Notes: a model not told the origin generated them from the letters alone. DNA of 64,000 nt from Thermoplasmatales archaeon (GCA_027310185.1 DAIDBH010000008.1:1-64000); one strand, 5' to 3'. Positions 11,345 through 36,584 are shown, counted from the stretch's first letter. Made by a program: numbers and translations.

Positions 11345-11385
11345 AATACGCTGGCCAGGGTTTGATCAAAGTCTTAAACGAATAC
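11345..11385. repeat. Degenerate att-like copy of the tRNA-Ala 3' end plus arm
   Basis: aatacgctggccagggtttga matches the core at 14/21 and is followed by tcaaagtcttaaacgaatac, which resembles the arm ttaatgttttaagcgaata. Confidence 0.6.
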
Positions 11386-11437
11386 TTTTAAGTAAACTGT
11401 AATTAACGTAAGATTGTTTATTTTCAGGCTCTAATGA

Positions 11438-11554
11438 TCATCCCAGATAGATAGAATTTAAGCCGGTGGAGAGTGCTAATTTATGAAGCCTTTCATTTCC
11501 GGTGTAAAATTCGTTACATCCAGCTTCAATGGCACTTGAAATCTGTAAGGCATC
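11438..11554 (-). pseudogene. VapC/PIN toxin C-terminal remnant
   Basis: Manual translation DALQISSAIEAGCNEFYTGNERLHKLALSTGLNSIYLG*. Confidence 0.65.
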
Positions 11555-11560
11555 AAGTAC

Positions 11561-11735
11561 CTCCACCAGCACAGATTCACAAGCATTCCTGGCCAAATAA
11601 CTTCAGAGATTCTTCCTGACACGGTTTCAGTCACTTTCGTTCATGATAATATGTCATGCAATTGATGGAAAGCTGCACCAAAATCTTTTAAGCTGAAAAA
11701 ACATGAACCAGAAATGACGCTTGAACCAGATAAGG
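11561..11735 (+). promoter_or_regulatory. Diverged copy of the esterase upstream region, promoter and first codons (homologous to about 3080-3250)
   Basis: Colinear similarity, e.g. tgcaattgatggaaa..ccaaaatc.tttaag.tgaaa.aacatgaacca...atgacgcttga, in both places. Confidence 0.85.
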
Positions 11736-12094
11736 AAAAACAAACACATGAAGCAGGAATCCTAAATAATTCAAGTCTTAACCATTGGTACAAGTTTTTA
11801 CTGTACCTGGGAGGAGCCATCCTTATTATTGGCTTTTATTTCTATCTCCAGTATCCTTTATCCAGCCTTTATGAACCATATTATATTGCAGATAGGGTCA
11901 TTGATTTTGCCATTTTCACAATCTTAATTGGCGCTTCACTCTGGATTCTTGATGAAATATTATACTACAAGGAAACCTATCCAAAACATGGCGTAGATCA
12001 TGAAAAAAATCTTAAAAGATTGATGATTGTGAGATTTATTTCCTGGATAGTAATGTTTGTCATATGGATTGTTTTGGCATTGTTGTTCATATGA
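11714..12094 (+). CDS. Three-TM membrane protein whose N-terminus derives from an esterase start
   Basis: Three hydrophobic segments; begins MTLEPD versus the esterase MTLDPA. Confidence 0.6.
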   Translation: MTLEPDKEKQTHEAGILNNSSLNHWYKFLLYLGGAILIIGFYFYLQYPLSSLYEPYYIADRVIDFAIFTILIGASLWILDEILYYKETYPKHGVDHEKNLKRLMIVRFISWIVMFVIWIVLALLFI

Positions 12095-12217
12095 ATATGA
12101 GATCATAAATTTATCACTCACTATTTTTCAATAAGAATCATGAAGTTACACCATTAATCTGCAAAATATAATAAAAAATAAGGATCCTCTAAAGAATAAA
12201 ACAGAAAAATAGAGTGT

Positions 12218-13600
12218 TTACTCCGGTTCAGCCATTACCAGTATTTCAGGATGTTCTTCCTCCCTGTTGATCTCCTCCAGGGACTTGCCTTTTGTCTCAA
12301 TTCCAAGGAAGATTGTTGCCAGCAGTCCTATTAAAGACAGGGTAGTGAAGAAGAAGAGGCTTGTGCTGAATCCATAATCTGACACAATAAATGGAAATGT
12401 TGTGATTCCAAGTATTGCACCAATCCTGCTCACAGATGTCCCGAATCCCTGCGCAGTTGCCCTGTCTTCAGTTGGAAACAGCTCAACCGGATATACGAAG
12501 TCCGTAGATCCTGGACCTATCGCCTCCGTAATGTAGAATATTAGGAAAAGGGCAAATATCAAGGCACCGGCGGTGACGAATGCTGCCTTGTCTGGTATGT
12601 GTAATGTAACAAGACCAAGTGCAGCCAGTGATACAACCATACCTGAAAAACCGATTATTGTTATTCCCTTCCTGCCAATCCTGTCTATAAGAAGAATTGC
12701 TATGATGACACCAGTAATCGCAAAGAAGTCAAACACCGCTGAACCCAGGACAGCTTCCCTTGCCTTCAACCCCAGGAGTTCCAGGATCGTGGGGCTGAAT
12801 ATGCTTATACCGTAGAATGAAGCATCAAATACGAACCAGAATATTCCAATAAACAGCAGGCTTCTGATGTACTTCCTGCTCAGGAGATCGCGCAATGGAT
12901 TTTTATTATCCCTCTTAATTTCAGCCAGGTTGTCTGTACTTCCGGTCAGCTCAATTTCCACAGCTGATGCCTCCTTCATTCTTCCCTTGTTATTGAGCCA
13001 TCTGGGTGATTCCGGTACATCTCTTCTTAGCACAAGGATTATTGCAGCAGGTATTACACCAAGCAGGAACATGTATCTCCATGACTGTGCTCCGAGTGTT
13101 AAAAGGAAATAGCCTGTAACAGCTGCCAGTACAGCGCCTACATACCATGCGAGGTTATTCAGTAAAAGCAGCTTTCCCCTTGCCCTGACAGGTGAAAACT
13201 CACTTATTATGGTTGTACCAATGGCATAATCAGCACCGAGTCCAAGTCCCAGTATGAATCTCATGATGAAGAGTGAGTCAAAATTCCATGAAAATGCAGT
13301 TGCGATCGTCATGACAATAAACAGTGCCATGTCATACATGTACATCGTCCTTCTTCCATAGAGATCTGTTATGTATCCAAAAAGAATTGCCCCCACAAGC
13401 ATTCCAATGGTAGTGGATGCGGCAATCATTGCCACGCCAAAACTACTGTTGAGCCCAAAAGTTGCCTTCCCCATGACCAGTAGCGCAACTGATATTATGG
13501 CAATGTCATAGCCATCCAGGAATGTTCCGCCCACAGAAAGAGCTGTGATCTTTCTATGCATGGAACCAACCTTTGCGTTATCGAGAACATTATATTCCAT
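12218..13600 (-). CDS. MFS transporter, paralogue of 956-2266
   Basis: GGTFLDGYDI, DLYGRR, PESPRWL, ETKGKSLEE; start taken at MEYNVLD. Confidence 0.92.
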   Translation of the reverse strand: MEYNVLDNAKVGSMHRKITALSVGGTFLDGYDIAIISVALLVMGKATFGLNSSFGVAMIAASTTIGMLVGAILFGYITDLYGRRTMYMYDMALFIVMTIATAFSWNFDSLFIMRFILGLGLGADYAIGTTIISEFSPVRARGKLLLLNNLAWYVGAVLAAVTGYFLLTLGAQSWRYMFLLGVIPAAIILVLRRDVPESPRWLNNKGRMKEASAVEIELTGSTDNLAEIKRDNKNPLRDLLSRKYIRSLLFIGIFWFVFDASFYGISIFSPTILELLGLKAREAVLGSAVFDFFAITGVIIAILLIDRIGRKGITIIGFSGMVVSLAALGLVTLHIPDKAAFVTAGALIFALFLIFYITEAIGPGSTDFVYPVELFPTEDRATAQGFGTSVSRIGAILGITTFPFIVSDYGFSTSLFFFTTLSLIGLLATIFLGIETKGKSLEEINREEEHPEILVMAEPE

Positions 13601-14066
13601 GAGTGCCCATAACATGGGATTATTTAGAAAAAATCCAAATAAAAAATATGCCACAATATAACCTTACTTGCATTACCATAAGAACAATAGAATAGATGAT
13701 ATTGCGAATACACTATTTTAATTGCCACTCAAATGATGATGAAGGAAGAATCCTCTAAAAATCCTGGAGATAACAGGACTTTTCGATGGCTTCTCTTTGG
13801 AATCAGATATGAGACTGCAGTAATACAGTTGAAATTTCGTAGAATACCCCCCTCATATAGGGAGAATGGGCATATTTTCCTCAAAGTTTGGTTTTCGCAA
13901 TCAATAATTAACAAACGAAGTTTTATATGACGAGAATCCTATTTTCCATTTTGTTATTTACCCTATATATGAGACAGTAAACATAATGGATATATGGTGA
14001 AAATTGTTAATTAATCTCCAGTGATCATTAAGAGTAACCTGGAAAATTAAGAAGGTACGTGATCAT

Positions 14067-14825
14067 ATGGAAATAAAATTTTTAGGAAACTGGTCCTCAC
14101 ATTTGGAAGCTGGAAAAAGGAACGTGTCTCTACTTGTAGACAGGCATATTCTGCTGGATTGCGGGCCACATACAATAGAGTCATTACTGGAATCAGGGAT
14201 CAATCCTGATAATTTAGACATGATCCTGATAAGTCACATGCATCTTGACCATTTTGGTGGCCTCGCTGAGATTCTCTGGTATCGCGGTTCTAGAAACATA
14301 AGCGATGAACTTACGATCATGGGCCCGCCAGGAATAAGGAAGAACATTGAAAGGATCCTCCAGATCTATAACAAGCCGGACAATGACCTGTTCAGGGTAA
14401 CAGCAAATTATGTGGAGATCAGTCATAATGGGGATGTACACGAGATCAGGTCAAGGTTTGTTGAGAGCAAGAAAGATGATCATGTGGAGGCTTTTCAGGG
14501 AAACCACATAATTCCCGACAACATTTACAGAATTGAGTATCAGAAGCATGTAATCGCATACACAGGGGATACTGCGTACACTGAAAATATATCCAAAGCG
14601 GGTGAAGGAGCAGATCTGCTTTTCCATGAAATGACATATACAGATAGTGAAAGCAAGATAGCAGAATTCTGGAAACATTCCACATACTCGTCTGCACTGA
14701 AAGGCTTCAGGGAGAGCAGGGCAGGTAAGCTCGTTCCTGTGCACCTTACAGATGGGACCCTCTCCATCCTGAAATCCGGCAATGAAGAAGATATAATTCT
14801 TCCACTTCACGACATAGTATTATAG
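14067..14825 (+). CDS. Metallo-beta-lactamase-fold hydrolase (RNase Z/phosphodiesterase-like)
   Basis: LLDCG, SHMHLDH, YTGDT, HEMT, HST, VHL. Confidence 0.85.
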   Translation: MEIKFLGNWSSHLEAGKRNVSLLVDRHILLDCGPHTIESLLESGINPDNLDMILISHMHLDHFGGLAEILWYRGSRNISDELTIMGPPGIRKNIERILQIYNKPDNDLFRVTANYVEISHNGDVHEIRSRFVESKKDDHVEAFQGNHIIPDNIYRIEYQKHVIAYTGDTAYTENISKAGEGADLLFHEMTYTDSESKIAEFWKHSTYSSALKGFRESRAGKLVPVHLTDGTLSILKSGNEEDIILPLHDIVL

Positions 14826-14858
14826 GAATTTTTCATGATATGAAGGTATTGGATAAAA

Positions 14859-15515
14859 ATGAGCCAGAACTATAAGAGAAGGATATACTTTTTAAGACAT
14901 GGACAGACAGATTGCAACAAGAATGGATTGTGGTACTGCCCGGAGAAGACTCATATCAACGAAACTGGAATGGCACAGGCCCAGGGCATAGCAGATATCA
15001 TAACCAGCATCAATCCTGATAAGGTCTACTGCAGTCCATTCCAGAGATGCATGGACACTGCAAATATTGTCCTCAAAAATCTCCCGAACCATGGCTTTAC
15101 AGTAAGGCAATGCCTTATGGAACGAAATTTCGAAGGCATCGAGGGTTTGACTGAAAAAGACGTCATGGATGAATACGGAGTGTGGATGGAACAATCTCCC
15201 ATAACTGGAAGGATGGACTCGATCCCACGTATTGAAAAAAGTGTCTCATTCAACATAAGAGTCAGAAGCTGCATTGACCAGATAATAGGTGAAACTGGAG
15301 ACTGCGAAAATATACTCATTGTGACCCATGGTGGTGTAATTTATTCATTTGTTTACCAGAAATTGAATATTGATCCAAGACCAGATCCGTTCTATAACTG
15401 CGCGTTGCTTGGCCTGGAGATAGAGAGGAACTCATTCAGGCCCATTCTTTCCATTAACATCAGGAAGGGCTGGTATCGTGGAGCTGAACTTTCTTCCAGT
15501 GACCAGCTTTTGTAA
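14859..15515 (+). CDS. Histidine phosphatase family protein
   Basis: LRHGQT, SPFQRCMDTA, ERNF, VTHGG. Confidence 0.9.
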   Translation: MSQNYKRRIYFLRHGQTDCNKNGLWYCPEKTHINETGMAQAQGIADIITSINPDKVYCSPFQRCMDTANIVLKNLPNHGFTVRQCLMERNFEGIEGLTEKDVMDEYGVWMEQSPITGRMDSIPRIEKSVSFNIRVRSCIDQIIGETGDCENILIVTHGGVIYSFVYQKLNIDPRPDPFYNCALLGLEIERNSFRPILSINIRKGWYRGAELSSSDQLL

Positions 15516-15809
15516 ATCTATGTCCTGTTGCATGTGACCCATGTTCCTATTGTATTTGGGTCATCCTAAAACTATGGTGATTGCAGCCACAAGGTGATCC
15601 TTTCCCTCAAAATTGTTTACCTGCAATTCTGTTTTTGTGACCATTCATCAGGAATTAACATGGAATCAGGGCATCTTCGGGTAATTCTTTGAGTGGTCCA
15701 ATGGAAATAGCGATGACTGCCCTAATCATCATGATATCACAGTGACCAGGCTTATCCCGCCATAAATATTTGTAAAGAACAGGCCTGGAATTGCAGGGAT
15801 TGAAAATAT

Positions 15810-16556
15810 CTAGACAAGTGACAATAATTTTCTTATTAGATCTGCACCTTCTTTCTCTTGCATTTCATTGCTGGAAGAAAACTTCTCTATTATTCCCTCT
15901 TCCATGAACTTTCTAAGGAAGCCAAATTTTGAAAACGTGTATGATATAAGCTCCAGGTTGGGGTTAGAGAATGCATTGCATTTAATCAGCGAAATAATGT
16001 CTCCGCAATCCTTTTCCAGCTTCTCCAATAGACGATCCTTGTCGGGATAATTATCCGACTGCAAATCATGATTTCTGTCCCACGCCGCCTTGAGCTTCAA
16101 TATCATAAGCATAGATACCTCTGGCACAATAACGCTGATTTCTCTTTTAGATAAATATGATACAGATCTGGCTTCTATCTTGAAGTTAAGCCTGGTTAAA
16201 TCCAACATTTCATTCTTCCCATGAAATCTATCCCTCTTTGGTAGAAAGTCAATGTATATATCGCCAGAATTCGATCTTTTCAAAAATATGGTGTTCCCTT
16301 CAGGAACCTTTTCCTTGCTATAGTTTCTTTGCTGATGAAGGTGACTCTGAAGTGCAGTTTTGAAGCGGCTTGTGGCTATGAAATCCATATCAAGTGAGTA
16401 TTTCCATGGGATATAGGAGTGAACTGCCCATCCCCCAACCAAGACAAGGTCACCCTGTTTATATTTGATATTTCCCAGGCTCCACTTGAAGATGTATCTT
16501 AGCTCCTCAATTGAGTCCAGAGCGAGATTTGTTGATCTATTTCCTTTACTTTCCAA
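15810..16556 (-). CDS. Pol-beta-fold nucleotidyltransferase (AbiEii/MenT-like toxin candidate)
   Basis: VLVGGWAV..SLDMDF, IDFL, LKLKA..R, KD..DI. Confidence 0.72.
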   Translation of the reverse strand: MESKGNRSTNLALDSIEELRYIFKWSLGNIKYKQGDLVLVGGWAVHSYIPWKYSLDMDFIATSRFKTALQSHLHQQRNYSKEKVPEGNTIFLKRSNSGDIYIDFLPKRDRFHGKNEMLDLTRLNFKIEARSVSYLSKREISVIVPEVSMLMILKLKAAWDRNHDLQSDNYPDKDRLLEKLEKDCGDIISLIKCNAFSNPNLELISYTFSKFGFLRKFMEEGIIEKFSSSNEMQEKEGADLIRKLLSLV

Positions 16557-17577
16557 ATTTTCTCACCAGATCCTTTGCTGCAATACGCCCATCCATGCCC
16601 AGCCCTGCTAAGTCAAGTATATTCTGGCAGATATCCACTATCCTGATTCCATTAATTTTTGTTGAAGAGCTCATGATGTTTCTATCAGGTACATATATAT
16701 TCAATCTGCAACCACCCATATTCTTCTCAGTAAATAGCCTGAGAACTTCTCTATCTGACGGGTTTGGGAGGTAAATATAAGCCGTATCTTCCCTAACTAT
16801 GGATGATCCATATGAAACGGCGGATGAATGTGATGTAAATGCATAATCTATTCCAAGCTTGTTTAAATTAAGCGATACTTCGTTTATACACTCGGTTGCG
16901 CTGTTGAAGCTTGTATTAATTGTTTCTACCAGAAGGCTTTCAAGAGGCCTTTCCCATGAAACTAAATTAAAAAGCTTATCTATATCCTTGATTCTCAGGC
17001 TGTAATCTGCAGCAACTATTCCTGAGTCCTCAAGCTTATGAATTATGGTATTTGTCCAGCCATATGAAACACCGCTCTTCCTGGAAACCTCAAGTATGCT
17101 ATAAGAGTTACTGGTGATTAAGGAACAGACTGTTTTCCACGCTTTTTCAGAGGCCAGTCTTGACGGGCTTGCCCTCCGGTGTTCTGAGGGAGAATTCGAC
17201 TTTGGTTCTGTTATCAACTGTGACAAGAATGGATACAGTTTCGAAGGAAAGAGGATGATTTCTATACCAAGTCTTGTCGCAAGTTCATCTGTGCTGAATT
17301 TCAATGATTTTCCAGCACAAACTAACCTTATTTTCTCTTTGCCTGTCGACTTCTCATCTATTAAATGTGACAGAACATATATCCTGTAAATTGTGTCTTC
17401 ATTTATTCTTGACCTGATTTCAATCAGCGTAATAGTGTCTTCCGATTCAATCGCCAGATCTACCATCATTTCCCTTTCTCCGACTTTTATTGAATATGGC
17501 CTTGAGATTTTTGCCTCTCGTGATATTCCTAATTTTTCTCGTATAAAATGGTAAACTGGCTCTGGATCTTTAATCAT
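16546..17577 (-). CDS. Winged-helix AbiEi-like regulator/antitoxin with an N-terminal nuclease-like domain
   Basis: VDLAIE..LIEIRS, HTH SILEVSRKSGVSYGWTNTIIHKLEDSG, YAFTSHSSA and QNILDL; overlaps the NTase gene. Confidence 0.65.
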   Translation of the reverse strand: MIKDPEPVYHFIREKLGISREAKISRPYSIKVGEREMMVDLAIESEDTITLIEIRSRINEDTIYRIYVLSHLIDEKSTGKEKIRLVCAGKSLKFSTDELATRLGIEIILFPSKLYPFLSQLITEPKSNSPSEHRRASPSRLASEKAWKTVCSLITSNSYSILEVSRKSGVSYGWTNTIIHKLEDSGIVAADYSLRIKDIDKLFNLVSWERPLESLLVETINTSFNSATECINEVSLNLNKLGIDYAFTSHSSAVSYGSSIVREDTAYIYLPNPSDREVLRLFTEKNMGGCRLNIYVPDRNIMSSSTKINGIRIVDICQNILDLAGLGMDGRIAAKDLVRKFGK

Positions 17578-17588
17578 TTATATAACTG

Positions 17589-17680
17589 TATTCACTGATA
17601 CTTTATTAATTTATCACTGATAGCTATCTGTAGATAGTAATACATTCAATAATTATCACTGATAAGAGTCTAACAGATAG
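17589..17680. promoter_or_regulatory. Operator-like palindrome array upstream of 16546-17577
   Basis: TATCA-C-TGATA at 17612 and 17654, a near-copy at 17589-17600, and CTATCT-GT-AGATAG at 17624-17637. Confidence 0.6.
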
Positions 17681-18327
17681 AAATGAACGAACCTGCATAA
17701 TTGGCTCCGGGTTTAACTGAATATTTTTATGTAGAATGTTCTAGATTTTTCTATGTGCTTCATAGAATCCTGAATTATGGATACTATTAACGATGCTTCT
17801 ACCGGGATAGTTTTAGGAGAGAGTTTAGTAGAGTAGCTTTTGCAATATCATGAATTCTCCTAAAAATTGAATTCTCTAATTAATGTAGATAGATTGCTTT
17901 TTTTCTCAGTCTTTCCTTGGTCTTCTTAAGCTTATGCTTGTTTCATGTTTGTAAACTTACATAAATATATTTTACATTCTCGTTCCTGCACTTTTTGAGA
18001 TTTCGTGAATTGAATAACTTCAATCCATAATGCCCCTGGCCGTGCTTAGTGCAATTATAATATATACAAAATTCATCATTTTAGTCATGAAAAACCATGG
18101 ATAACTTTTATCCAGAATGAACAACTCAGAAATACTAAAGGAAACAAGGGCGAAAACAACTGCAAGTATCAAGGAAAGAGCAGAATGAAAGTGCTTATTT
18201 TATGCGAAATAATGAGATATTTGTATAGATGTGAACAGGGAAACTACATCGATAGAGTGAAATAATATCCACTCATATTTGCTAATCGTTGATTTTAATT
18301 ACTACTCCTCTTATGAAACTGGAAATT

Positions 18328-18552
18328 TCAGCTGCTGTTTCTACTAGCGTTTTTTTGGTAATCCTCATTTTTCTCCCAGTTAATTCTTGCAATAATAGCT
18401 GCAAGACAAGCTACAGTGGTCAGAGATAAAATGGATAGATTCAGAAGAAGTTGACCTGTTCCCAGCCCCAAGCCTTCATAAATGTTAATTGCACCTGCAA
18501 TCATAGCCAGAACCAGTACTGGAACCATAATTCTGTTTGAAACTGGCCTCAT
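18328..18552 (-). CDS. Small two-TM membrane protein
   Basis: Two hydrophobic helices, ATG start. Confidence 0.5.
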   Translation of the reverse strand: MRPVSNRIMVPVLVLAMIAGAINIYEGLGLGTGQLLLNLSILSLTTVACLAAIIARINWEKNEDYQKNASRNSS

Positions 18553-18731
18553 TATCCCACTTTCTATTATATAATATAGTTGAGTTCAATATATCTACTT
18601 ATCCGTTAGATAGTCCCACTAATTTCATTTTATTATACAAGAGTTGATTTTAAATTTCCAGTGTGAATTGTCCCAGTTATGCCAACAATACCCATTGCCT
18701 TTAATAAGACCAAAGCTTGACAAATTTTTCT

Positions 18732-18791
18732 ATTGTTAAAAATCAGTATATCTGGCCCATATTGTTATTGCAGCACCTCCCTCCTTCCCAT
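18732..18791. repeat. 60-bp dispersed repeat, copy 2
   Basis: 57/60 identical to 10887-10946. Confidence 0.95.
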
Positions 18792-19159
18792 CTCATCAAG
18801 GCTGACATTATCATCATTGAAGAACTGAAGAATGAAGTGGATGTCCCGATTTCCTCTGGTTTGAATGTTGTGTTTGCTATCTGGATTCAAAGAGTCCATG
18901 CTATTCCATAACTGCATATGCCAGTAATTATACTGACTGCAAATACCATGTAAGGTCTCCTGTTCTTTATTGGAGACTTTAGCCTGATTATGAACCTTGT
19001 CACAACATCACCAACGAACATTATTGCCAGGAGGTAGAACATTGTGGTTGCAGTAAGACCGAGAACACTTCCATAAATGACCCAGTAGGAGAATATTATG
19101 TAGAATGGAATTGTATAGGCGAATGCTGCTATTAATGCCCAGTTGAACTGCCTGCCTTT
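18743..19159 (-). pseudogene. MFS transporter fragment related to 55958-57169
   Basis: Manual translation QFNWALIAAFAYTIPFYIIFSYWVIYG...YGIAWTL*IQIANTTFKPEEIGTSTSFFSSSMM; in-frame TGA at 18887-18889 and no start. Confidence 0.7.
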
Positions 19160-19310
19160 TTAGAACTAGTGACAGAAAGGAAAGGCAGTTTCAAGAATGG
19201 TCGCTATTATTGCGTCAATAGCAATTAATAACGGCTGCTCACTTTATACCCTGGATAAGCATTTTGAAATTTTTATTGAGAACGGTCTCAAGATGTTCAA
19301 GTAAAGTTAG

Positions 19311-19349
19311 AGTGAAGTGCTAGGGAATTGATTAATCCTTAACTCAGGT
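19311..19349. repeat. Degenerate att-like copy plus arm
   Basis: 14/21 to the core; 28/39 ungapped to the 21977 copy, including ttgattaat..ttaa.tcaggt. Confidence 0.55.
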
Positions 19350-19409
19350 GTGTGCATATTATTTCACAAGTCTATGCTGATTGTAAGAATTTGTGTCCAA
19401 CACCCACAC

Positions 19410-21101: not shown

Positions 21102-21186
21102 ATATTAACTGGAGCCATAAGGAAATCGTCGAGTATACTCTATATTCTATGAGAAAGATTATTAAAGCACTTGCTTTAATGAAATT

Positions 21187-21867: not shown

Positions 21868-21976
21868 TACTGAGAAAACAACAACCTAAATATTCCTTCT
21901 ATTTTAGTGCTGAGGAGACTATAAAAAACGTAGGTATCTTGAATAAATCTATGAGATTGAAATTAAGGATAAAAAC

Positions 21977-22015
21977 AATGGACAGGTTGGAATTTGATTA
22001 ATGTTTAATTCAGGT
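21977..22015. repeat. att-like copy plus arm
   Basis: aatggacaggttggaatttga matches the core at 18/21, followed by ttaatgtttaa. Confidence 0.85.
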
Positions 22016-22025
22016 ATTGCTTTTA

Positions 22026-23297: not shown

Positions 23298-23358
23298 GAC
23301 ATTTCATCCAGAAATTTGTTCTTATTTGGGGTGCCAATGTGTATTGATAATTTATGTC

Positions 23359-25360: not shown

Positions 25361-25570
25361 ACTAACGCTGACTACTTTATAAGAAAAAGAATGGAAAAGA
25401 TATAGCTTACAGTAATACTATATAAGGCGCCTAAAGATTTTTACCTCGTTAGTCTATAAATGAGATAAATGAAAGTGAATAAAAGGTGAACTAATCTAAG
25501 ATTTCCTAATGATGAAATTCATCGTTTGGGGGTTTAAATTGCAAATAGTAGATGGGAGGATAACAAACCT

Positions 25571-29300: not shown

Positions 29301-29446
29301 ACAAGAATCTTGGAAATTTCAAAGGTTTGTTAGAAGGCAAGTATTCGAAGAACTTTCTCAAGGAAATTTTAGATAGGAGCGATCAAAAAACTAGAATGAT
29401 GGAGGATGAGGTAGTGAGTGCTATTTCTTCGTTGGCAAGCAAATAA
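26324..29446 (+). CDS. hamB: Hachiman HamB-like Ski2/DEAD-DEAH helicase
   Basis: MPTGGGKT, VPTRSL, TPEK, DEFH, MSA, STSTLAEGVNLP, GRAGR, long helical N-terminus. Confidence 0.78.
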   Translation: MFERTRALIESLQKNYALGSMPNAQRLHKDLIQRALELFIESDMKFNNSSGLTDEWTEIGTEGASAILKSVELANRYDSNEQVTTKINRTYLLNLAAMEYYRCGRHGIAAAIISRPDAKLPNKVESSPTYTIVMLLQLFFTSKYQEASRLSKDYIDQVKRNILKNTQEKSHSGLSVIILLSLVFVYQTFISIEHQVINGEKSAEDPTSLMENSIQLSKDCGDLEYLMFLESLMRTVKSLQLLSIWNIGEILWKNNLPPLFKEWANHRILENKPFLFPSQYEAIITHNALNNTYELITMPTGGGKTLLAELFILKSLIDNPNGKVLLVVPTRSLAFEESSDLRRAYEWKGSPISVCQLTGDVAFDTKKALENNKVIVLTPEKFDILMRNSFFDYTVAGLVVDEFHAIRSSYRGIKIQLSIKRYYKRYGTRVLFMSAIVRNADFSWLSKWVLSPDPFSTQWKPTPARIGTVSIDERPIVTVSFNDGTYRDINMPKGLRRNASNQAGVQIVKTFLEEEKDQVLHYNMTWRTYKFGGNRLIDLAEEYMHALPNGQTFNKQALKELSIRFSRLAGKENKLAKAFEKGIAVHWGELPYVARKIVEKGIRQRAIGIILSTSTLAEGVNLPIKTAYIPKLATRTRNMEKSQFLNIIGRAGRPFFHAEGQVIIAINESGKEEDQTPKELVNDYALMKNEDIEPIITSAVEFSEILWKAISEWKIWEEGKPTPEESWEGTLSDDIKREFKKFLAYLEAISSALLACLEEGILSNIDSDLMDNLIFLGPETNEQKINVRRLLNIVEKRLIFFETVNRKEKILVLTDWGKIVYKTGFGPETCSNLRKRLKVIAEDYNSFKVKGQEIMKPDSRSYLFFNEMLHMLNLPLERYNFGDESFDDTDHWILRGWVSGVLTEDIAKRNKKLDGDFLRAYTKIDGFLSTYSAWVFTACYIAGDSLFGNSELIQSIHKLSRYILYGHYNEEILELLEKDVNRNLLRDDVIVLYKNLGNFKGLLEGKYSKNFLKEILDRSDQKTRMMEDEVVSAISSLASK

Positions 29447-29539
29447 TAAATGATAGATTCTATAAATTTTCATATTCCTTTGTGTATAAACAGATTCAGT
29501 GTTTCCGCATGATAGACAAAGATTAGCTATAACTTGAGG

Positions 29540-29960
29540 GACCTATATAGTGCGGTTGAACCTCCCGGTTCTCTCATATTACTCACCAGAAGGTAGGAAA
29601 TCCCCCTCCCCTACAATGTTCCCTGCAATGGTGAAATATGTGCCCGGAGCGAGCTGGAAGTCTTGCGTAGCAAGACCGAGTGGTGTAAGCGTCAGCGGTG
29701 GGTGGTGTGTAACACCACACATACACCACGAGCGGCGAGCACAGGACACCACCCTGAATGAGCGTGGCGAATGAGGGGCTCTTTCGAAGAAAGAGTGCGA
29801 TACGTAAATCAAAAGAGGGGTTAGGGGTGAATTTTGATTGGAGGCGAAGCATGGGGTCCTGTGCTCGGCGTGCAGGCGAGCGGAGGGTACATAGTAAACA
29901 GCGAAGACTCAAAGAGGGGTGGCTGAAAGTCGGGGTGAATTTGAGCCGAAGCATACCAAA
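29540..29960. other. GC-rich structured intergenic tract (origin-like or ncRNA)
   Basis: Hairpins at 29660-29676, 29702-29729 and 29778-29796; 12-bp inverted repeat 29736-29747/29856-29867; imperfect direct repeat 29809-29852/29909-29954. Confidence 0.55.
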
Positions 29961-29995
29961 AGGTATTAAAATCTAAAAGAATATAGAGTTATATT

Positions 29996-30172
29996 ATGAC
30001 CACAGCAAAACAGTCAAGGCTTGTAAGCATACCAAAGTCCGATCTGGATAGCCTTGAGGCTACCATCGAGACTCTTGAGAATGAGTATGTAATGGATCAG
30101 CTGGAAAGGAGCGAGCAGGACATACAGAGTGGAAGAGTCAGAAACGTTAGAGAGTTCCTGAAAGAGCTCTAA
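29996..30172 (+). CDS. 58-aa RelB/Phd-like antitoxin, not in the ORF track
   Basis: MTTAKQSRLVSIPKSDLDSLEATIETLENEYVMDQLERSEQDIQSGRVRNVREFLKEL; AT-rich TATA-like sequence upstream. Confidence 0.75.
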   Translation: MTTAKQSRLVSIPKSDLDSLEATIETLENEYVMDQLERSEQDIQSGRVRNVREFLKEL

Positions 30173-30429
30173 TAATACTTCTTCGCTTCGTCTTTGTGAA
30201 GGATTGCTCTGAGCGTCACTTTCTTTTGCTCTTCGTTTATTTCATACCAAACTTTGAAAGGACCAATTCTGAGCTGCCATAGTCCGTGAAGCTTGCCTCT
30301 CAATGGCTTCCCTGACTGCGGTTCCTGTTCCAGTCTCTCCGCCATGTGTTGCAGCCATTCTTTCTTATCCTTATGGTTCCTGGAGAATTCCTTCTCGAAT
30401 GCTTCCGTGGATTCTACGGTGTAGCTCAT
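30169..30429 (-). CDS. RelE/ParE-family toxin
   Basis: GKPLRGKLHGLWQLRIGPFKVWYEI. Confidence 0.85.
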   Translation of the reverse strand: MSYTVESTEAFEKEFSRNHKDKKEWLQHMAERLEQEPQSGKPLRGKLHGLWQLRIGPFKVWYEINEEQKKVTLRAILHKDEAKKYY

Positions 30430-30452
30430 AAATATTAGCCTCTACTTTGCGC

Positions 30453-33374
30453 TCAATAGTCCTTAAAGCCCATGTAATCTCCCAGCGTGCCTCTCACCTT
30501 TGCCTTTGTAAGTTTGGCATATTCCAATATCTCGCAAGTGGTTGCTCCCTGCTTCTTCATCTGCTCGAATGTGTTCTGGCTGAGCAACACATAGCTCCAG
30601 TTACAGTTCATCCTCTCTTGAGGATCCAGTTCATTCACCTTATCTATCCAATCTATTGCTGCCAGTCTCTTGTTTTGCACGTTCTTGTTGCTCATATCTC
30701 TTTCAGATTTTGTCTCAACCAGGTAAATCTGGTCACATGCCCTGATCATAAAATCAGGATAGTAATGTGCCAACAGTCCGTCGTCCCGGATATAGATGAT
30801 GTTGGCGAAATCGTTGTAGTATTCGTTTATCTTAACAAATGCCTTTACTTTTGAGTCTGCATCTATGAACTCGATGAAGTCCTTCTCAAAACCGCCGCTG
30901 TGAGACGGGTACGCAATCTTTTCGTATATGTTTTTTGCAGCGCTAATCGCGTAAGTTTCCCTTACCCTTATTTCCGGGACTTCCGAGAAATACTTCTTCA
31001 CGATCCTTGCCTCGTTAACCTTGAGACCTTTCATGGAATCGTATACGGCCTGGGCAATGTTACTAACGATGTGCTTGATTATGCTCTGCTGTGTTATCAA
31101 CAGGATGCGCCAGTTGTTGTCCTCGAGAGGATCAAATTCCTCTCCGAACAGCCTGTGTCTTATGTACTCATCCGTAAGCTTGGCGATTAACGCTGAATTC
31201 ACCTGCATCACCGGGAAATCTCTCTGTTTTCTTCCTCTGGCATTGACATGGATCACCGAGACCGCATTTACCACCTTCTGGATGAACGAATTGTAGCTCT
31301 TGGCCGTGAATATATCGGCAGTGACCGTGTATTCTCCGAACGTTGTCTTGACTGTGAGTTCTTCGCTGTAAAAGGTGTCTCCCTTGTTCTTTACCAAAGG
31401 TCTCAATTCTTCCAGTTTCATGGGAAAAGGTGCAAGTTTCTCGATAGAGAAGTCAGGAACCGCCAGTTCTTCCTCCTTCTCCTGCAATATTATGATCCAG
31501 AAAAGGTCATAATCTCTGTGGTTTGGTTTGAGTCCGACCCTGATCAGGTCGCCCACAACCTTTGTATTTGATGGCTCTTCTCCAACTTTGCCAACCATTC
31601 CCGCAAGGACTCTCTCGTAATACTCGATGAATTTTGGATGCTCAACCACACTCAATATGTCGATGTAACTGTCCGGTTCTTCCTTCTTCATCAGGAGTTT
31701 TTCACGATTTTCTGACCTCATGTCGTCATAGTCTGGCCCTCGCCACATCAGCCTCAGACCCCTTCCTATCAGTTGTTCTAGAAGAACGTAAGAAGATGCG
31801 GATCTGAGAGGAACTATCACGCATATGTTATTTACGTCAAATCCTTCCCTGAGCATCAGGACAGAAACTATCACCTTTGGTTTCTCATGTCGGTCTATGT
31901 CAAACAATCTCTGCTCTATTGCCTTCCACTCGTCTTCACTGACGTCGCCTTTCTTGGTGGAATGAATCTCCATTATTTCATCTTCGGAATAGCCCTCTTG
32001 CATCATAAATGTCACAACAAGAGGCACTACCTTAGTATCTTCACAAACAACAAGCATCTTCGGGTATTTTGTTGGATCAAGCTTTGTGAATTTCTCCTCC
32101 AGTATGTTGAGTTTCTTCATTCCGGCTCTTAGCATCAGTTTCTGGCCATCAGAAAGACTGGAAACCTGCCTGCCCTCTCGTTCCGCTTTAAATTCCAAGT
32201 CTTCCAAAGGTATTGCGCCGAACTCCTTCCTCTTGTCGATTGCGACGGTTTTCACAAGCCCTTTCTTTATGGCATCCACAAGTTCGAAGTTGGCCACGAT
32301 GTGCGGAAAGTGGTTTTGTACCCTGCTCTGGCCGCTTCCTGTTACCACATAGGGAGTTGCAGAGAAGTCAACCTGAATGAAACGGCTCTTCTTTTTCTCT
32401 GATATCTTGTCAAGTGCTTCCTGCCACTTCTTCTCCACAATTTCGTCCGATTTCTTCATCTCTCCAAGATGGTGGGCTTCGTCATTGAAAACTACGAGAC
32501 TGGGTAAATTGGCCAGGTAATCCAGTTCCTTGCCTCTGAGATATTGATTGTCCAGTTCCTCCAGCGAGTGTCCCTGTGAATTCCCCGGTGTTATGGGCAG
32601 CAACTCATTTACTGTTATATCTGGCCGATCCAACGGCGATTCTGCGTCCATAACTTCCTCATCCTCTGTCAGCAGGTGCCAATTGGTTATTGCGATCAAG
32701 CCATCACCAGTCACTTTGCCGATTTCTTCCTTCTGTGATACACAGCCCTGGATGAATCCAAAGATCTCGTCCTTGCGTGCTGGAGGAATAAAGAGCTCTT
32801 CAAATTTCCAGAAATCGGACTGCTCAAAATCCCTAGTTCCATCTTCTCTTCGCTTTCCCAGATACGCATCCAACAACCTTTCATAGACAATGATTCCCGG
32901 AGCTATCAGAAGGAAATTCCTTGAATACTCACCGCTTTCGTTTTCTTCGTACTTTGAATTTAGAAATTGCCAGATCATCAGGGCATGAAGGACCCAAGTC
33001 TTTCCAGTCCCTGTGGCCATCTTAACGCAATATTTCGGATGCTCGTACTTATCCCGCTTCAGATCAAGCAGGTCCATTTGAGCTAACAATTCAGGATACA
33101 TTTGAGTATAGATTTCTCTAACACTCTTGAGTTTGAGAATCTCATGGACGTAAATTACATTCAGAATGGCTTGCCATTGGCCATCATGGAAGTTAATGTT
33201 TCTTTCATCGGCGAAAATTCCGTTTGGATCCCAGAATTTCAGAATTTCCTGTGTTATGGGTGTGACTTTCTGCATAAAGTCTCCGGATTTCCACAACGCA
33301 CTGGCTTCTTCGGTTATTCTTTTCGCAAGTTTTAATGGGATATCCTTGGTGCCAAGGGACTTTATGTTTACCAT
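30453..33374 (-). CDS. res: Type III-like restriction subunit (SF2 helicase plus PD-(D/E)XK nuclease)
   Basis: MATGTGKT, NDEAHH, FSATP, LREGFDV, QLIGRGLR, YYPDF..VETK. Confidence 0.88.
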   Translation of the reverse strand: MVNIKSLGTKDIPLKLAKRITEEASALWKSGDFMQKVTPITQEILKFWDPNGIFADERNINFHDGQWQAILNVIYVHEILKLKSVREIYTQMYPELLAQMDLLDLKRDKYEHPKYCVKMATGTGKTWVLHALMIWQFLNSKYEENESGEYSRNFLLIAPGIIVYERLLDAYLGKRREDGTRDFEQSDFWKFEELFIPPARKDEIFGFIQGCVSQKEEIGKVTGDGLIAITNWHLLTEDEEVMDAESPLDRPDITVNELLPITPGNSQGHSLEELDNQYLRGKELDYLANLPSLVVFNDEAHHLGEMKKSDEIVEKKWQEALDKISEKKKSRFIQVDFSATPYVVTGSGQSRVQNHFPHIVANFELVDAIKKGLVKTVAIDKRKEFGAIPLEDLEFKAEREGRQVSSLSDGQKLMLRAGMKKLNILEEKFTKLDPTKYPKMLVVCEDTKVVPLVVTFMMQEGYSEDEIMEIHSTKKGDVSEDEWKAIEQRLFDIDRHEKPKVIVSVLMLREGFDVNNICVIVPLRSASSYVLLEQLIGRGLRLMWRGPDYDDMRSENREKLLMKKEEPDSYIDILSVVEHPKFIEYYERVLAGMVGKVGEEPSNTKVVGDLIRVGLKPNHRDYDLFWIIILQEKEEELAVPDFSIEKLAPFPMKLEELRPLVKNKGDTFYSEELTVKTTFGEYTVTADIFTAKSYNSFIQKVVNAVSVIHVNARGRKQRDFPVMQVNSALIAKLTDEYIRHRLFGEEFDPLEDNNWRILLITQQSIIKHIVSNIAQAVYDSMKGLKVNEARIVKKYFSEVPEIRVRETYAISAAKNIYEKIAYPSHSGGFEKDFIEFIDADSKVKAFVKINEYYNDFANIIYIRDDGLLAHYYPDFMIRACDQIYLVETKSERDMSNKNVQNKRLAAIDWIDKVNELDPQERMNCNWSYVLLSQNTFEQMKKQGATTCEILEYAKLTKAKVRGTLGDYMGFKDY

Positions 33375-35503
33375 CAGCTTACCTCTTTAATCGCCACGCT
33401 TTCAAACCCAAATACGTCCACCGCTTTCACACAGACCTTTCTGATCCCATTAACGTGGGGGACAAGCAGCTTCACTTTCCTGTCAACTTTCGATGCCCCT
33501 TCGTGGTTTTCCCTGTAATCCTGCCATTTGCTCCTGAATACTTTTCCATCATATTCGGGATCGATACTCCAGTACTCGACGAGACTCAACGGGTCTTCCC
33601 CGATGATCTTTTCTAGTTTGTCTTTATCTGACTTATCCAGAGGTAGTGCATCTGGAGACAGTAGAACATAGTTTTCAAGTTCAATCGTTAACTCCTCCTT
33701 ATCGTCTTCCACTGGTTTCTTGAGGATCGGTTTAACAGTGAGGTATTGTAAGGAGCTAAATCTAACGCTGCCTTCCTTTATGAGTTTTTCATAGTCTGCT
33801 TTGTGTTTCAGTTTTTCCAGCAAGTCTGGGGGAATCACCAGTACTTCGAGGTTATCATCATTCAGGCTGTCTATGATCTTACCGATATCCGTTTCGAAGT
33901 TCCATCCCAGAACAACGATCTTTTCCCATCCTCCCATGAAAGAAGCTCTGAGTTCCTGAGCCTTTTTGAGTGTAGCATAACCTGTAATTTTTGTGGGAGA
34001 GTCAACCAATACCAAGGTTTTACTTTGCTTTATATATCCGAGATTGGTGGGAGTGCCTTCTTGCATCGGAAATGGAAGCACACCATACAGGTTAATCACA
34101 ACGTGAGCAAGGTCACCTATACGCCTGAATTGTGATCTTTCAAACTGTTCTTTTTGGTAGTCTCCTATTGATTGATAAAGAAATGGCTTTGCGTCCTGGT
34201 CTATAAGACGTTTTCTTGTGATCATGCAGGCAGGTTTTCCTAGGTCACACATGATCCAGTTCCTTCCTAGTTTCTCTGCAACTGCACCTAGAGTACCAGA
34301 ACCAGAAAAAAAATCTGCAACAAATCCTTTATCCGGTGAAGAAGCATCTATAATTCTATTTAAGAGGCCCATTGGTTTTTGTGTATCATAGTTAACTCTT
34401 TCATTGCTATTAGCTGCTATTGGCGCAACCTCCTCATCCGCCCATATTCTGTCGTCAATCCATAAATCTCCAAGATAATCTCCTTTTTTGTTCTCAAGAT
34501 ATTTCTTTATTCTTGGGGTTCCATTCTTCGTGAAAATAATCAGACCATCTTTTAAGCCCGCGTCAATTCGTTCTTGGCTCCAAATCCAATGCTTCCCGCT
34601 TGGCGGTTCTAACAACTTATCGCCAAAATATCTCGCTTGACCTTGGCCAGATTGAGTAAAATCAAAGCTGCCCCAAAGTTTTCCCGTACCTTCCTCAACA
34701 TATGGATAACTACTGTCCTCTTTGCCTACTGGCAAGTATTGACCTTTAAAATAACAGGAATCAGATTTACTGTAGAATAAAATAGCATCTTTCAAGTTTG
34801 AGAAAACTTTGCTTTGAGCTTTTGCTGCAGTAAGTTTTTTCCAAACAATCTCACTTCTAAAATTATCTTTGCCAAAAACTTCATCCATGATTACTTTAAC
34901 ATAATGGCCAACATGCCAGTCTATATGGAAATAAATTGACCCTTTTTCACTAAGAAGTTCCCTCATAAGGATTAGTCTTGGAACAATCATTTCCAAGTAG
35001 GACTTTGTCCCGTCCTTCCAAGTATCCGAGTAAGCGAACTGTTCTATAACCGAAGGTTTTTGTTCAATGTCTACAGATGGAAGATGTATTTTTGTTCTAT
35101 AGTCTGCCTTGCTGTCAAAAGGTGGGTCAATATAAATCAAATCTATTTTGCCCCTCATAGAGGGAAGCCCTGTATCTGGGTCCCCAGCTAGAAGTGCCTG
35201 CATCGCAAGTAGATTATCACCATATATGAGTCTGTTAAGAAACTCATTGTTATCTTCTTTTTTTACAGCCTGGCCAGTGAACTGAGTTAATCCTCCGACG
35301 GCCTTAGTCGGCAGGACCAATTCATTTGTCTGAAGAGTTATTCTTTGTGTCTTAGAAAGTCCATCGAGGATTCTTTGAGCCTCCTTTTTTCCTCTCTCCA
35401 CTATTTTTGGTAATTCTTCAATTAGTGATTTTCTTTGTCCATTTCCACCTCTTTGAGTAGGATCGCTTTTTTCCTCCAACGAATCAACCATGTAAAACAC
35501 CAC
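33374..35503 (-). CDS. mod: Type III-like DNA amino-methyltransferase (Mod)
   Basis: GDNL, YIDPPF, TQKP, DFFSGSGT (beta-class motif order). Confidence 0.9.
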   Translation of the reverse strand: MVFYMVDSLEEKSDPTQRGGNGQRKSLIEELPKIVERGKKEAQRILDGLSKTQRITLQTNELVLPTKAVGGLTQFTGQAVKKEDNNEFLNRLIYGDNLLAMQALLAGDPDTGLPSMRGKIDLIYIDPPFDSKADYRTKIHLPSVDIEQKPSVIEQFAYSDTWKDGTKSYLEMIVPRLILMRELLSEKGSIYFHIDWHVGHYVKVIMDEVFGKDNFRSEIVWKKLTAAKAQSKVFSNLKDAILFYSKSDSCYFKGQYLPVGKEDSSYPYVEEGTGKLWGSFDFTQSGQGQARYFGDKLLEPPSGKHWIWSQERIDAGLKDGLIIFTKNGTPRIKKYLENKKGDYLGDLWIDDRIWADEEVAPIAANSNERVNYDTQKPMGLLNRIIDASSPDKGFVADFFSGSGTLGAVAEKLGRNWIMCDLGKPACMITRKRLIDQDAKPFLYQSIGDYQKEQFERSQFRRIGDLAHVVINLYGVLPFPMQEGTPTNLGYIKQSKTLVLVDSPTKITGYATLKKAQELRASFMGGWEKIVVLGWNFETDIGKIIDSLNDDNLEVLVIPPDLLEKLKHKADYEKLIKEGSVRFSSLQYLTVKPILKKPVEDDKEELTIELENYVLLSPDALPLDKSDKDKLEKIIGEDPLSLVEYWSIDPEYDGKVFRSKWQDYRENHEGASKVDRKVKLLVPHVNGIRKVCVKAVDVFGFESVAIKEVS

Positions 35504-35518
35504 GATATTGAGTACTAA

Positions 35519-35985
35519 CTAAAGCCTCTTTCTTAACTCTCCAGATACAATAGAAGCATCCGATAATAATATTTGTGACTCCATTGTATAATATCTGCCT
35601 ATCTTCTTCTTGATCAGTGTGATAAGGCCAAGGTTCTGCAAATAATTGACGCTCTGGAAAAACGTTGACTTGCTCACTCCACTGAGCAGCAAATGACTGG
35701 ATGCTGAAACTTCGGAATACGCCCTGTTCGTATCCTGATTCTTGACCAGCGCTGCCAGTATCAGCAGGTCCTGGTCTCCAAGGTTCTTGAGCGTTTCGCC
35801 TTCCACCTCCACGTAAGCCTGCTTCAGTGCTGTCTTGATCGAGTCCTCATCCCATTTATTGCTCCTGCCAAGAATTTCCAGGGCCTTTATTCCGATCCTT
35901 GCGTCACTCCTGTAGTCCCTAACAAGCAGTGCAGACAAGAGACCCAGAGACTCCTTGTCATATTCATTCAGGCCTTCCTTTGCCT
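35519..35985 (-). pseudogene. C-terminal fragment of a Cdc6/Orc1-like AAA+ initiator
   Basis: SDARIGIKAL sensor-2-like helix and a winged-helix end (SKSTFFQSVNYLQNLGLI); no Walker motifs. Confidence 0.6.
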
Positions 35986-36462
35986 TCATAATCGCCAAGA
36001 GATTCCGGTCTGAGGCCTGTGAATGCCATGATCGCTATGGCAACCCTTCCTCCTGAGGTTGCTTTCCTGATTATCCTTGCCTGTTCTTCCTTGCTTGGCA
36101 CACTTTTGTTTGCTATCGTGGGTGTTTCATTCTCGTCGGATGTGTTAACGATTAACTGCAAACGAATTTCATTAAATTTAAGCCATGAGATGATGACTTT
36201 CTTGAACCTCGCAATGTATGATCCTGCTTTGCCCTCCTTTTCAGTTTCCTGACAAAATCCGTAAACTCGTAGCGGAAATCCTTTTCGTTTGATCTGGCTT
36301 TGTTCAAGATTTCCTTTGGCGTTGTCTCTGTAATCTCGCAATAGTGGCCCAAGTTCCTTAGAGCCATCGTAGCAGTTAAGACGGTTTTGCCTTGAGATTC
36401 TCAAACCACATTCGTAAATCCTCATTAAGAAGCAGTTCCTGATACTTCGGCTGCATGGTCAT
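35964..36462 (-). pseudogene. Tyrosine integrase remnant (frameshifted and truncated)
   Basis: Three frames join as MQPKYQELL..WFENLKAK / ALRNLGHYCE..FTDFVRKL / EGKAGSYIARFKK..MAFTGLRPESLGDYEG; the HxxR and Tyr motifs are missing. Confidence 0.85.
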
Positions 36463-36512
36463 GAGTACATAACAAGTTCCGAGAATAAAAAAGGTCAGAT
36501 TAATAAATATAA

Positions 36513-36584
36513 TGGACCGGTCGGGATTTGAACCCGAGGCCTCTTGCTTGCAAAGCAAGCGATCTACCGCTGATCTACCGGCCC
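36513..36584 (-). tRNA. tRNA-Ala(TGC)
   Basis: GGGCCGGTAGATCAGCGGTAGATCGCTTGCTTTGCAAGCAAGAGGCCTCGGGTTCAAATCCCGACCGGTCCA forms a cloverleaf with a G3:U70 pair; no intron. Confidence 0.97.

Follow-up and report, generated by a model that had tools for sequence, protein, structure and literature searches.

We analysed a 64,000-nt stretch of DNA from an acidophilic Thermoplasmatales archaeon (GCA_027310185.1, DAIDBH010000008.1:1-64000; hereafter, the window), in which positions 11345-36584 hold a ladder of attachment (att) sites anchored at a transfer RNA (tRNA) gene for alanine. A preceding interpretation made from the nucleotides by a model (hereafter, the sequence-only reading) had proposed that the ladder divides a genomic island into gene cassettes that lack an integrase. 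Pattern and profile searches showed that the ladder is real, is anchored at tRNA-Ala, and splits the island into integrase-less units. The locus is probably a tandem accretion array in which an integrase drives modular exchange from att to att, in the manner of integron cassettes or cis-mobilizable elements. Tandem island arrays at tRNA and transfer-messenger RNA (tmRNA) genes are already known, and we regard this one as an archaeal version of them that is new.

Att sites in the window

The single tRNA gene of the window, tRNA-Ala with anticodon TGC (36513..36584, minus strand; detected by ARAGORN, 72 bits with the Rfam tRNA model), anchors the array, and its 3' end constitutes the attB core. 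The core at the tRNA end (36511..36531, plus strand) has 21 bases: the last 19 of the tRNA and two flanking ones. Exact copies of this 21-mer are located at 36511, 25322, and 23360, and copies with three and four mismatches at 21977 and 22741, respectively. At three mismatches or fewer, there were four matches in the window versus 0.00 expected (100 shuffles). All core copies have the same orientation, and every copy leaves the tRNA sequence after ...ATTTGA to continue into a 20-base arm, TTAAnGTTTTAAGnGAATAC. Core and arm together form an att module of 41 bp, outside which the information content was about 0 bits (55 non-redundant internal sites from 11 genomes).

Individual copies were scored with two profiles, one built from 12 clear copies of this genome and one from 43 non-redundant sites of other genomes, excluding this one. 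The other-genome profile detected 13 non-tRNA copies in two arrays at E ≤ 2.4e-4, and nothing else in the 1.88-Mb genome scored below E 0.67. Four copies in the window, all on the plus strand, were clear: 25322..25362 (core 21/21 plus arm, E 5.8e-16), 23360..23400 (core 21/21, arm diverged, E 9.9e-9), 22741..22781 (core 17/21, arm 19/19, E 6.2e-10), and 21977..22017 (core 18/21, arm partly diverged, E 2.4e-4, or 5.7e-6 with the own-genome profile). The distal copy at 11345..11385 (plus strand; core 14/21, arm well kept) was marginal with the own-genome profile (E 0.48) and reached E 1.2e-4 across the genome with the profile from other genomes only, the next background match being at 0.67. Over the 190 bases following it, identity to the beginning of att-bounded units of the related genomes G002 and G013 is 81%, and on this evidence we accept it as an att copy. 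The copy at 19311..19348 (plus strand; core 14/21, 17-base arm remnant) had no profile significance (E 99 with the own-genome profile; unlisted at E ≤ 50 with the other). However, the stretch 19144-19335 is 90% identical, over a 197-column alignment, to C1:153909-153713 on another contig of this genome, which holds a clear att (at C1:153717); therefore, 19311 is a degenerate copy by descent.

The seven sites listed in the sequence-only reading thus include four clear internal copies and a significant one at 11345, but the one at 19311 is recognisable by homology only. Their start-to-start intervals are 11189, 1962, 619, 764, 2666, and 7966 bases. The second of these had been taken for a single 2.0-kb unit; its bounds hold, but a decayed att absent from that list (24079..24118, plus strand; gap-free alignment to the G012b att at 1758978) divides it in two.

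Second ladder and distribution of the att module

A second ladder was found outside the window, on contig C1 of the same genome (G000 C1:135516-158738). It lies downstream of tRNA-Ala(CGC), which has its 3' half in common with tRNA-Ala(TGC), and its eight core-plus-arm copies bound an 11.4-kb copper-resistance stretch and seven units of 1.05-2.6 kb with PIN, ParE, MarR/SRPBCC, and AAA genes. The G012 locus is syntenic on either side, but nearly all of the content differs. Parts of units are common to the two arrays of this genome. We rejected the comparison of the C1 array with G002C4 as a clean one-unit indel, as the neighbouring units differ too.

Relatives were scanned with a degenerate 31-base pattern spanning the core/arm joint, with the reversed pattern as control. 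The pattern matched in 17 of 41 related genomes, this genome counted, and the control in none of the 41. Within the genus, 10 of 16 genomes besides this one were positive, and within the family 14 of 24; two other families were represented as well. Scanning with core and arm, which had been recommended as a check on the ladder, recovered both a second array here and the same module in relatives. An exact-match scan of a species-representative genome collection returned 46 stretches, 42 of them titled Thermoplasm-; the others came from a Cuniculiplasmataceae archaeon, Acidiplasma aeolicum, an 'uncultured archaeon', and a metagenome-assembled genome (MAG) labelled 'bacterium'. Ladders in the stretches fetched from 10 relatives had two to nine rungs. 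The att pattern had no match in viral contigs.

Exchange of units between genomes

Units recur in other arrays and genomes with homology that ends at att cores. Five unit families match end to end, with att at both bounds, across genomes, genera, or families (72.8-94% identity). The MazF unit of the window is 89% identical end to end to G008C7_142737_143493, with background identity reached at both att cores. A 931-bp unit of G012a has a counterpart in G019, of another genus (93.8%), and a G012b unit one in G040, of another family (90-92%, except for a 1.35-kb insert). A 1.4-kb unit of G002 matches G013 at 92%, and a 0.78-kb PIN unit matches G003, G013, and G023 at 72.8-80.4%. The major facilitator superfamily (MFS) unit of the window, 87% identical to G002C4_7679_10702, sits in the TGC array here and in the CGC array in G002.

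Identity profiles fell at the cores, on both sides, from 80-98% inside a unit to 25-50% outside. For core genes located next to the islands, identity was 66-74% in comparisons of this genome with G008 or G002, and 64-72% in comparisons of G012 with G019, G040, G008, G002, or G013, except for a few stretches of <120 bases. The unit pairs compared with this baseline had 87-94% identity. Unit identity above core-gene identity, together with the steps at the cores, indicates that units have moved between lineages recently, as discrete pieces.

A comparison of the tRNA-Ala locus across strains, also suggested earlier as a check, revealed an att-to-att polymorphism. The flanks of G011 and G012 are 99.4-99.5% identical on both sides of the CGC island, and the two have the distal-most unit in common (98.5%). 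G012 possesses six additional att-bounded units (28.9 kb), and the integrase elements of the two genomes differ (78-88% identity). The breakpoint lies within the core, the last core base going with the arm.

The integrase and its carrier elements

Within the window, an integrase trace was detected in the tRNA-proximal unit only, in agreement with the sequence-only reading. This pseudogene (35982..36462, minus strand) covers residues 1-161 of a 429-aa family and is 70-85% identical to the G012 integrase over pieces. Its reading frame is broken by one or more frameshifts, its catalytic C-terminal part is missing, and its start codon lies 48 bases from the core. Three intact 429-aa genes were found, two in G012 (one per tRNA-Ala locus) and one in G011 (CGC locus). 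Each begins about 47 bases away from the tRNA and stays whole beside it in the integrated state, and identity to the window remnant is 70-73%. A candidate for the enzyme postulated to act in trans on the cassettes thus exists outside the small units and is intact at the tRNA in relatives, but it is a pseudogene here.

The array integrase is too divergent for the PF00589 model. Pfam yielded no match for the 429-aa protein at E ≤ 0.01, PF00589 included, and none of the seven PF00589 matches in this genome lies in either array. NCBIfam XerA matched at E 2.8e-9, far under the curated cut-off, and PHROG 1 ('integrase') at E 5.9e-5. The large and little-studied family includes at least 1985 proteins at E ≤ 1e-5 (8000 candidates scored) and forms 2043 clusters at 50% identity. 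The 120 family proteins listed had 85-97% identity, and their named sources were Cuniculiplasma, Acidiplasma, Ferroplasma, and Thermoplasmata or Thermoplasmataceae MAGs. Among 43 aligned homologues, R152, K196, Y270, and Y308 were invariant, and R273 and H300 were conserved in at least 90%; the set R152, K196, Y270xxR273, H300, Y308 matches the tyrosine recombinase signature R-K-(H/Y)xxR-H/W-Y. When compared to proteins of known structure, the integrase profile matched archaeal XerA (E 3.6e-7 and 1.3e-5) and IntI4 (E 0.048). The AlphaFold2 (AF2) model of the integrase (m407208c04fb1) had a predicted local distance difference test (pLDDT) score of 90.3, and Foldseek assigned it a probability of 1.00 to XerA, IntI4, XerH, Cre, and lambda Int. 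Judged by its conserved residues and modelled fold, the integrase is a divergent tyrosine recombinase of simple Xer/Cre build with an extra C-terminal part. In the model, this extension (residues about 339-429) consists of confident helices and three strands beyond the catalytic domain; the shorter Xer and Cre chains among the fold matches listed (266-356 residues) have no space for it.

The integrase-bearing elements are 16-21 kb long. Since they encode ParA, an Orc1/Cdc6-like protein, a resolvase (PF00239, E 1.6e-44, in the 21-kb element), MerA, and CopA, they look like integrative plasmids; a tblastn search with the integrase found no match in plasmid and phage collections. A conserved integrase-side arm was present at four of nine tRNA-type sites and at none of 69 internal sites. 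A search for dyad symmetry in the site returned imperfect repeats only (9 of 12). The full site contains three occurrences of a 12-base motif, GKATTYGMTTAA: one in the integrase-side arm, one spanning the core/arm joint, and one, inverted, at the arm end (for example, at 25335-25362 of the window and, in L014 of G012, just upstream of the integrase). This motif may be the element to which the integrase binds.

In this genome, the integrase has an intact 444-aa paralogue (C17:32145-33479, 38% identity). A second N-terminal integrase fragment lies 2 kb away (C17:35490-35680), and small toxin-antitoxin-like open reading frames (ORFs) adjoin. In a search for the att of this paralogue, no tRNA and no direct repeat of at least 18 bases were found within C17:10-60 kb. 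Because the cognate integrase here is a pseudogene, both arrays are probably frozen unless a paralogue acts on them.

Origin of the units without an integrase

We cut 64 units from the arrays and dropped six G011 duplicates of G012 units, leaving 58 non-redundant units. The majority (48) were ≤4.6 kb, with the remaining 10 being ≥7.9 kb. Fifty-four had att on both sides and no integrase match; the four with a match (three intact genes and the pseudogene of the window) all adjoin the tRNA. An internal deletion in a full element would keep the junction of integrase-side arm and core, and none of the 69 internal sites has one, which argues that most small units are not simple internal deletion products. 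The junction is kept in the proximal unit of the window and in G023C18. The alternative already named in the sequence-only reading, that full elements were inserted and then suffered deletions, thus suits the proximal unit, G023C18, the contig L028, and the G032C1 unit, but not most of the small units.

Junctions in metagenome contigs

Metagenomes containing 80-100% of the words of this locus were identified. Assembled contigs of four metagenome runs were aligned to positions 17000-36950. Several contigs contained joints between att sites: 19309/19312->25321/25325, 19312->36513, 25363->36511, 25363->25321 (which goes back 43), and 25362->22018. These joints had 19-43 letters on the shorter side, with 90% likeness. 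We rejected them as evidence of excision or circles because 19-43 letters are too few to assign a locus; they may stem from the C1 array, other loci, or other organisms. In each of the four metagenomes, the 25322 site was joined to many different flanks, with breaks at 25320-25323 and 25362-25364. The junction expected of a free form (integrase-side arm, core, and arm) was detected in one metagenome contig, which has a truncated integrase, and in none of the stretches of the genome collection; the exact-match pattern used for both counts undercounts. This junction does not separate a free circle from an integrase element located inside an array.

Proposed mechanism

From these observations we infer that the integrase acts on the att sites, and likewise the form in which small units would travel. 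A Thermoplasmatales-specific tyrosine recombinase, carried on 16-21 kb plasmid-like integrative elements with mercury and copper resistance genes, would join the 41-bp core-plus-arm site to the 3' end of either tRNA-Ala gene. Integration would regenerate the tRNA site and leave a core-plus-arm copy distally, so that repeated events would build a ladder. As each internal rung is a core-plus-arm site, any two rungs would act as direct repeats of one site type and the stretch between them as a module, which recombination between the two would delete or release. Recombination of the tRNA core with a distal rung would release the integrase element along with neighbouring units (cis mobilization as a composite circle), and a module could possibly move alone as an integrase-less circle. 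A composite circle might re-enter via either of its sites; the integrase element would then come to lie inside the array, with a small unit at the tRNA. Small tRNA-proximal units were indeed found in G002, G003, G023, and G032, and contig L028 may represent an internal integrase element. Toxin-antitoxin pairs, regulators, transporters, and defence genes would accumulate as self-stabilizing cargo and be exchanged between genomes.

Solo travel of a small unit hinges on the need for the integrase-side arm. A bolder proposal, which we hold tentatively and consider to have the odds against it, is that the 41-bp core and arm are self-sufficient for an Xer/Cre-like integrase without an arm-binding domain. 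Circles consisting of site and cargo would then be captured serially at either tRNA-Ala, excised between any two rungs, and traded across genera, and the array would be an independent analogue of the integron, with toxin-antitoxin genes stabilizing the stack.

Evidence against the proposed mechanism and alternative explanations

A number of observations weigh against accretion with integrase-driven exchange. No intact cognate integrase was found in this genome, and no circle or empty-site junction of a small unit was found among the assembled metagenome contigs, which cannot reveal rare variants. Circles made of cassettes alone would be unable to integrate should this step require the integrase-side arm. 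Decayed elements are present: the proximal unit of the window has a truncated, frameshifted integrase and only patches of the full-element backbone, G023C18 is a decay product with an integrase-side arm and no integrase, and the metagenome contig L028 has integrase-side arm, core, and arm together with a truncated integrase. The 3-kb tRNA-proximal unit G032:C1:146080-149142 contains homologues of genes beside the G012 integrase, with integrase and arm replaced by 870 unrelated bases; on this comparison, it is a case of integrase loss up to the core. Many homologies end short of att, and some units are fused or truncated; for example, the MFS unit of the window is 388 bases short relative to G002, and G011C3_110361 is composite. 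Differences in neighbouring units between genomes could partly stem from differential loss out of larger transferred arrays. The chronological order of cassettes claimed earlier is visible as a trend, in that cores farther from the tRNA in rank tend to have more mismatches (rho 0.43, p 0.005, n = 42; arrays not independent of one another), but exact cores at the internal positions C1:149591 and G012b:1758978 misfit a strict age order.

The decayed elements would also be accounted for if the units were nothing but deletion remnants of full integrase-bearing elements and the att copies inert scars, and serial integration with degeneration is the model of tRNA islands given in passages of 10.1101/2020.12.28.424599 and PMC5704250. 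We consider decay alone unlikely, given the absence of the integrase-side junction expected after internal deletion from all 69 internal sites, the small size of 48 of the 58 units and lack of an integrase trace in 54, and the recurrence of att-bounded small units in unrelated arrays at 87-94% identity versus 66-74% for core genes. The same shared units can be turned into an argument for homologous recombination by the host, in which 41-bp repeats and conserved units serve as substrates after DNA uptake, the integrase brings in large elements only, and the modular pattern is a by-product. The 41-bp direct repeats flank every unit, 87-94% identity suffices for homologous exchange, and a passage of PMC8371274 explains module exchange between tandem elements in this way. 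However, on either side of a shared unit, identity drops to background no more than about 50 bases from the core; insertion of a unit between unrelated neighbours would therefore have only about 41 bp of homology to rely on. We judge this explanation quite unlikely, also in view of the breakpoint between G011 and G012, which falls inside the core and leaves the last core base with the arm.

The 41-bp site might instead be used by a different recombinase, such as the host XerA or an element-borne small serine resolvase, with the tRNA-adjacent enzyme serving its own element only. Candidates exist in the resolvase of the 21-kb element and the seven XerA-like and other PF00589 proteins of this genome, and according to parts of PMC3146451 the tandem tmRNA islands of Dehalococcoides use serine recombinases. 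Nevertheless, the tyrosine recombinase is the sole gene at a fixed position by the core in all three intact elements, the arm upstream of its gene is conserved, and the small units have neither a resolvase nor an Xer gene linked to them, which makes this the least plausible of the explanations and, in our view, very improbable.

We therefore prefer tandem accretion with integrase-driven att-to-att exchange. It provides a concrete mechanism proposal for the shuffling of defence, toxin-antitoxin, and metal-resistance genes among acid-mine archaea. If single units do move alone, the array would represent an archaeal form of cassette capture that is based on a tRNA and has converged on integrons. 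Being a short site with a simple recombinase, the pair might furthermore find use in the genetic manipulation of Thermoplasmatales.

Gene content of the window

The cargo was largely as described in the sequence-only reading (HamB, type III restriction-modification, ParE, PemK/MazF, SRPBCC-MarR, and MFS). The tRNA-proximal unit (25363..36510, 11.1 kb) is a decayed integrative element with patchy homology to the 16-21 kb integrase elements. There are three such patches: the 5' end of the integrase gene, the ParE region, and a block of 460 bases whose G012 counterpart is remote from the integrase. Based on family matches, the unit encodes a type III restriction-modification pair (methyltransferase and restriction enzyme, 30453-35503), a ParE-type toxin region (about 29583-30429), and the helicase HamB (26324-29446, E 1.2e-58). 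The 250-aa ORF upstream of HamB, its supposed partner, had no family match. A 159-aa ORF and the integrase remnant complete the unit.

The type III pair (30435-35525) is missing from contigs of three metagenome runs, which pass directly from 30434 to 35526 (shorter side of the joint in X5, 61 letters); this indel has no att bounds. In four metagenomes, contig depth over the ParE-type region (29654-30319) was about 30-50 times that of the adjoining sequence, and some contigs have this region immediately after an att (joints 25362->29791 and 25363->29900). It may be a free-standing unit elsewhere.

The next units are smaller. An SRPBCC gene (24168-24647) and a MarR gene (24632-25117) form the unit 24119..25321, which is 75% identical to G013C23:13111-14086. 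The unit 23401..24078, with a DUF7557 antitoxin (23524-23775) and a ParE/RelE toxin (23772-24026), is 82% identical to the 700-bp stand-alone unit G012b_1758979_1759678. It is followed by the unit 22782..23359 with one 80-aa ORF (23055-23297) without a family match, the unit 22018..22740 with a PemK/MazF toxin (22026-22352) and a DUF7557/VapB-like antitoxin (22330-22563), and the unit 19349..21976 with the MFS transporter (19410-21101) and an HTH_10 regulator (21187-21867). Beyond the degenerate att lies the 3'-end remnant of a PIN (VapC) gene (19144..19310, plus strand), the end of a unit that recurs in the C1 array (93.6% over 172 bases). The distal 7.8-kb stretch (11386..19143) encodes a sugar transporter, a metallo-beta-lactamase fold protein, a histidine phosphatase, and ORFs without assignment. 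Genes are located on both strands within arrays.

The distal boundary of the island was not found in the window, as the contig begins inside the island. The contig start is a repeat common to the ends of C1, C5, and C18, and the distal flank of G012 maps to C18. The island seems to extend left of the last att into positions 1-11344, where the profile detected no recognisable att. Here, an ATPase_2/DUF234 gene (7512-8948) shares 77% identity with the gene beside the tRNA on C1; closer to the last att are a PIN gene with an antitoxin (10061-10736) and a further antitoxin, of the DUF7557 type (10898-11161).

Comparison with known systems

Chromosomal integrons have a fixed entry site with an adjoining tyrosine recombinase and a one-way array of small modules, each with a short site, that is rich in toxin-antitoxin genes. 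The ladder resembles them in all these respects and in having modules common to several genomes. The integron likeness emphasized in the sequence-only reading accordingly holds in function, but not in structure. The sites here are tRNA-derived and double-stranded and lack the hairpin potential of attC: six strands of three sites folded with a minimum free energy (MFE) of -0.2 to -3.2 kcal/mol (z -0.28 to +1.33). The integrase resides within the array, on a 16-21 kb plasmid-like element between the tRNA and older units, rather than beside an attI outside it. Genes run both ways instead of forming co-oriented cassettes behind a common promoter. The enzyme belongs to a distinct 429-aa family whose best matches are archaeal XerA, to which its sequence is nearer than to IntI4. 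As there is no attC-like fold, gene orientation is mixed, and the enzyme is not an established IntI, the system is integron-like in outline and not an integron.

Gene capture in archaeal chromosomes was reportedly described by She et al. in 2001. The comparisons that follow refer to passages of the papers cited. SSV-type 'suicidal' integrases (PMC7253208) are likewise archaeal and tRNA-targeting, with elements trapped in the chromosome, but their att lies inside the integrase gene, which is split on integration. We rejected an element of this type for the present case, in which a whole 429-aa ORF stands beside the tRNA when integrated, starting about 47 bases from the core. Prochlorococcus tycheposons (10.1101/2020.12.28.424599) resemble the ladder in being anchored at tRNAs, with newcomers pushing older elements inward, partial tRNAs, degraded integrases, and niche-adaptation cargo. 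They differ in host domain and integrase lineage, and their partial tRNAs are scattered remnants rather than a regular ladder of small units with a conserved arm.

Passages of a review of archaeal tyrosine recombinases (PMC8371274) mention tandem integration and integrase loss and contain no such ladder. Those of PMC5155288 and PMC12302457 report islands of Cuniculiplasma and other acidophilic archaea with tRNAs, integrases, and toxin-antitoxin genes, described as 'genomic islands near tRNAs' and without repeated att; the 41-bp site, its two targets, and a candidate enzyme can now be named. We found no account of such a ladder in Thermoplasmatales in the literature, although the supplementary island tables of these two papers might overlap with the loci.

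Cis-mobilizable elements (CIMEs) of the ICESt1/ICESt3 type (PMC5704250) also keep att without integrase or transfer genes, stand in tandem with an integrase element at a tRNA 3' end, and can leave with it as a composite. They are described as decayed integrative and conjugative elements (ICEs) or integrative and mobilizable elements (IMEs), usually one or two per locus, whereas the arrays here have up to eight or nine rungs, no integrase-side arm at any of the 69 internal sites, and small units common to several genera.

Three features of tandem tRNA/tmRNA island arrays were found here: direct repeats of the target gene's 3' end in one orientation downstream of it, an integrase by att in intact members, and att on both sides of integrase-less units. 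In Dehalococcoides, ssrA genomic islands (ssrA-GIs; PMC3146451) are tandem tmRNA islands, some of them without an integration module and proposed by the authors to be cis-mobilizable. As described there, they have in common with the ladder the direct repeats of the 3' end of a tRNA-like gene, an adjoining conserved element-side motif, insertion at the T-loop, tandem downstream units, and the coexistence of units with and without the integration module. They are bacterial, use a CcrB-like serine recombinase, and carry dehalogenase genes. Here, by contrast, the host is archaeal, the enzyme is an Xer/Cre-like tyrosine recombinase with two tRNA-Ala targets, most units are 0.6-4.6 kb, most small units of this genome contain a toxin-antitoxin gene, and the integrase is confined to the tRNA-adjacent unit.

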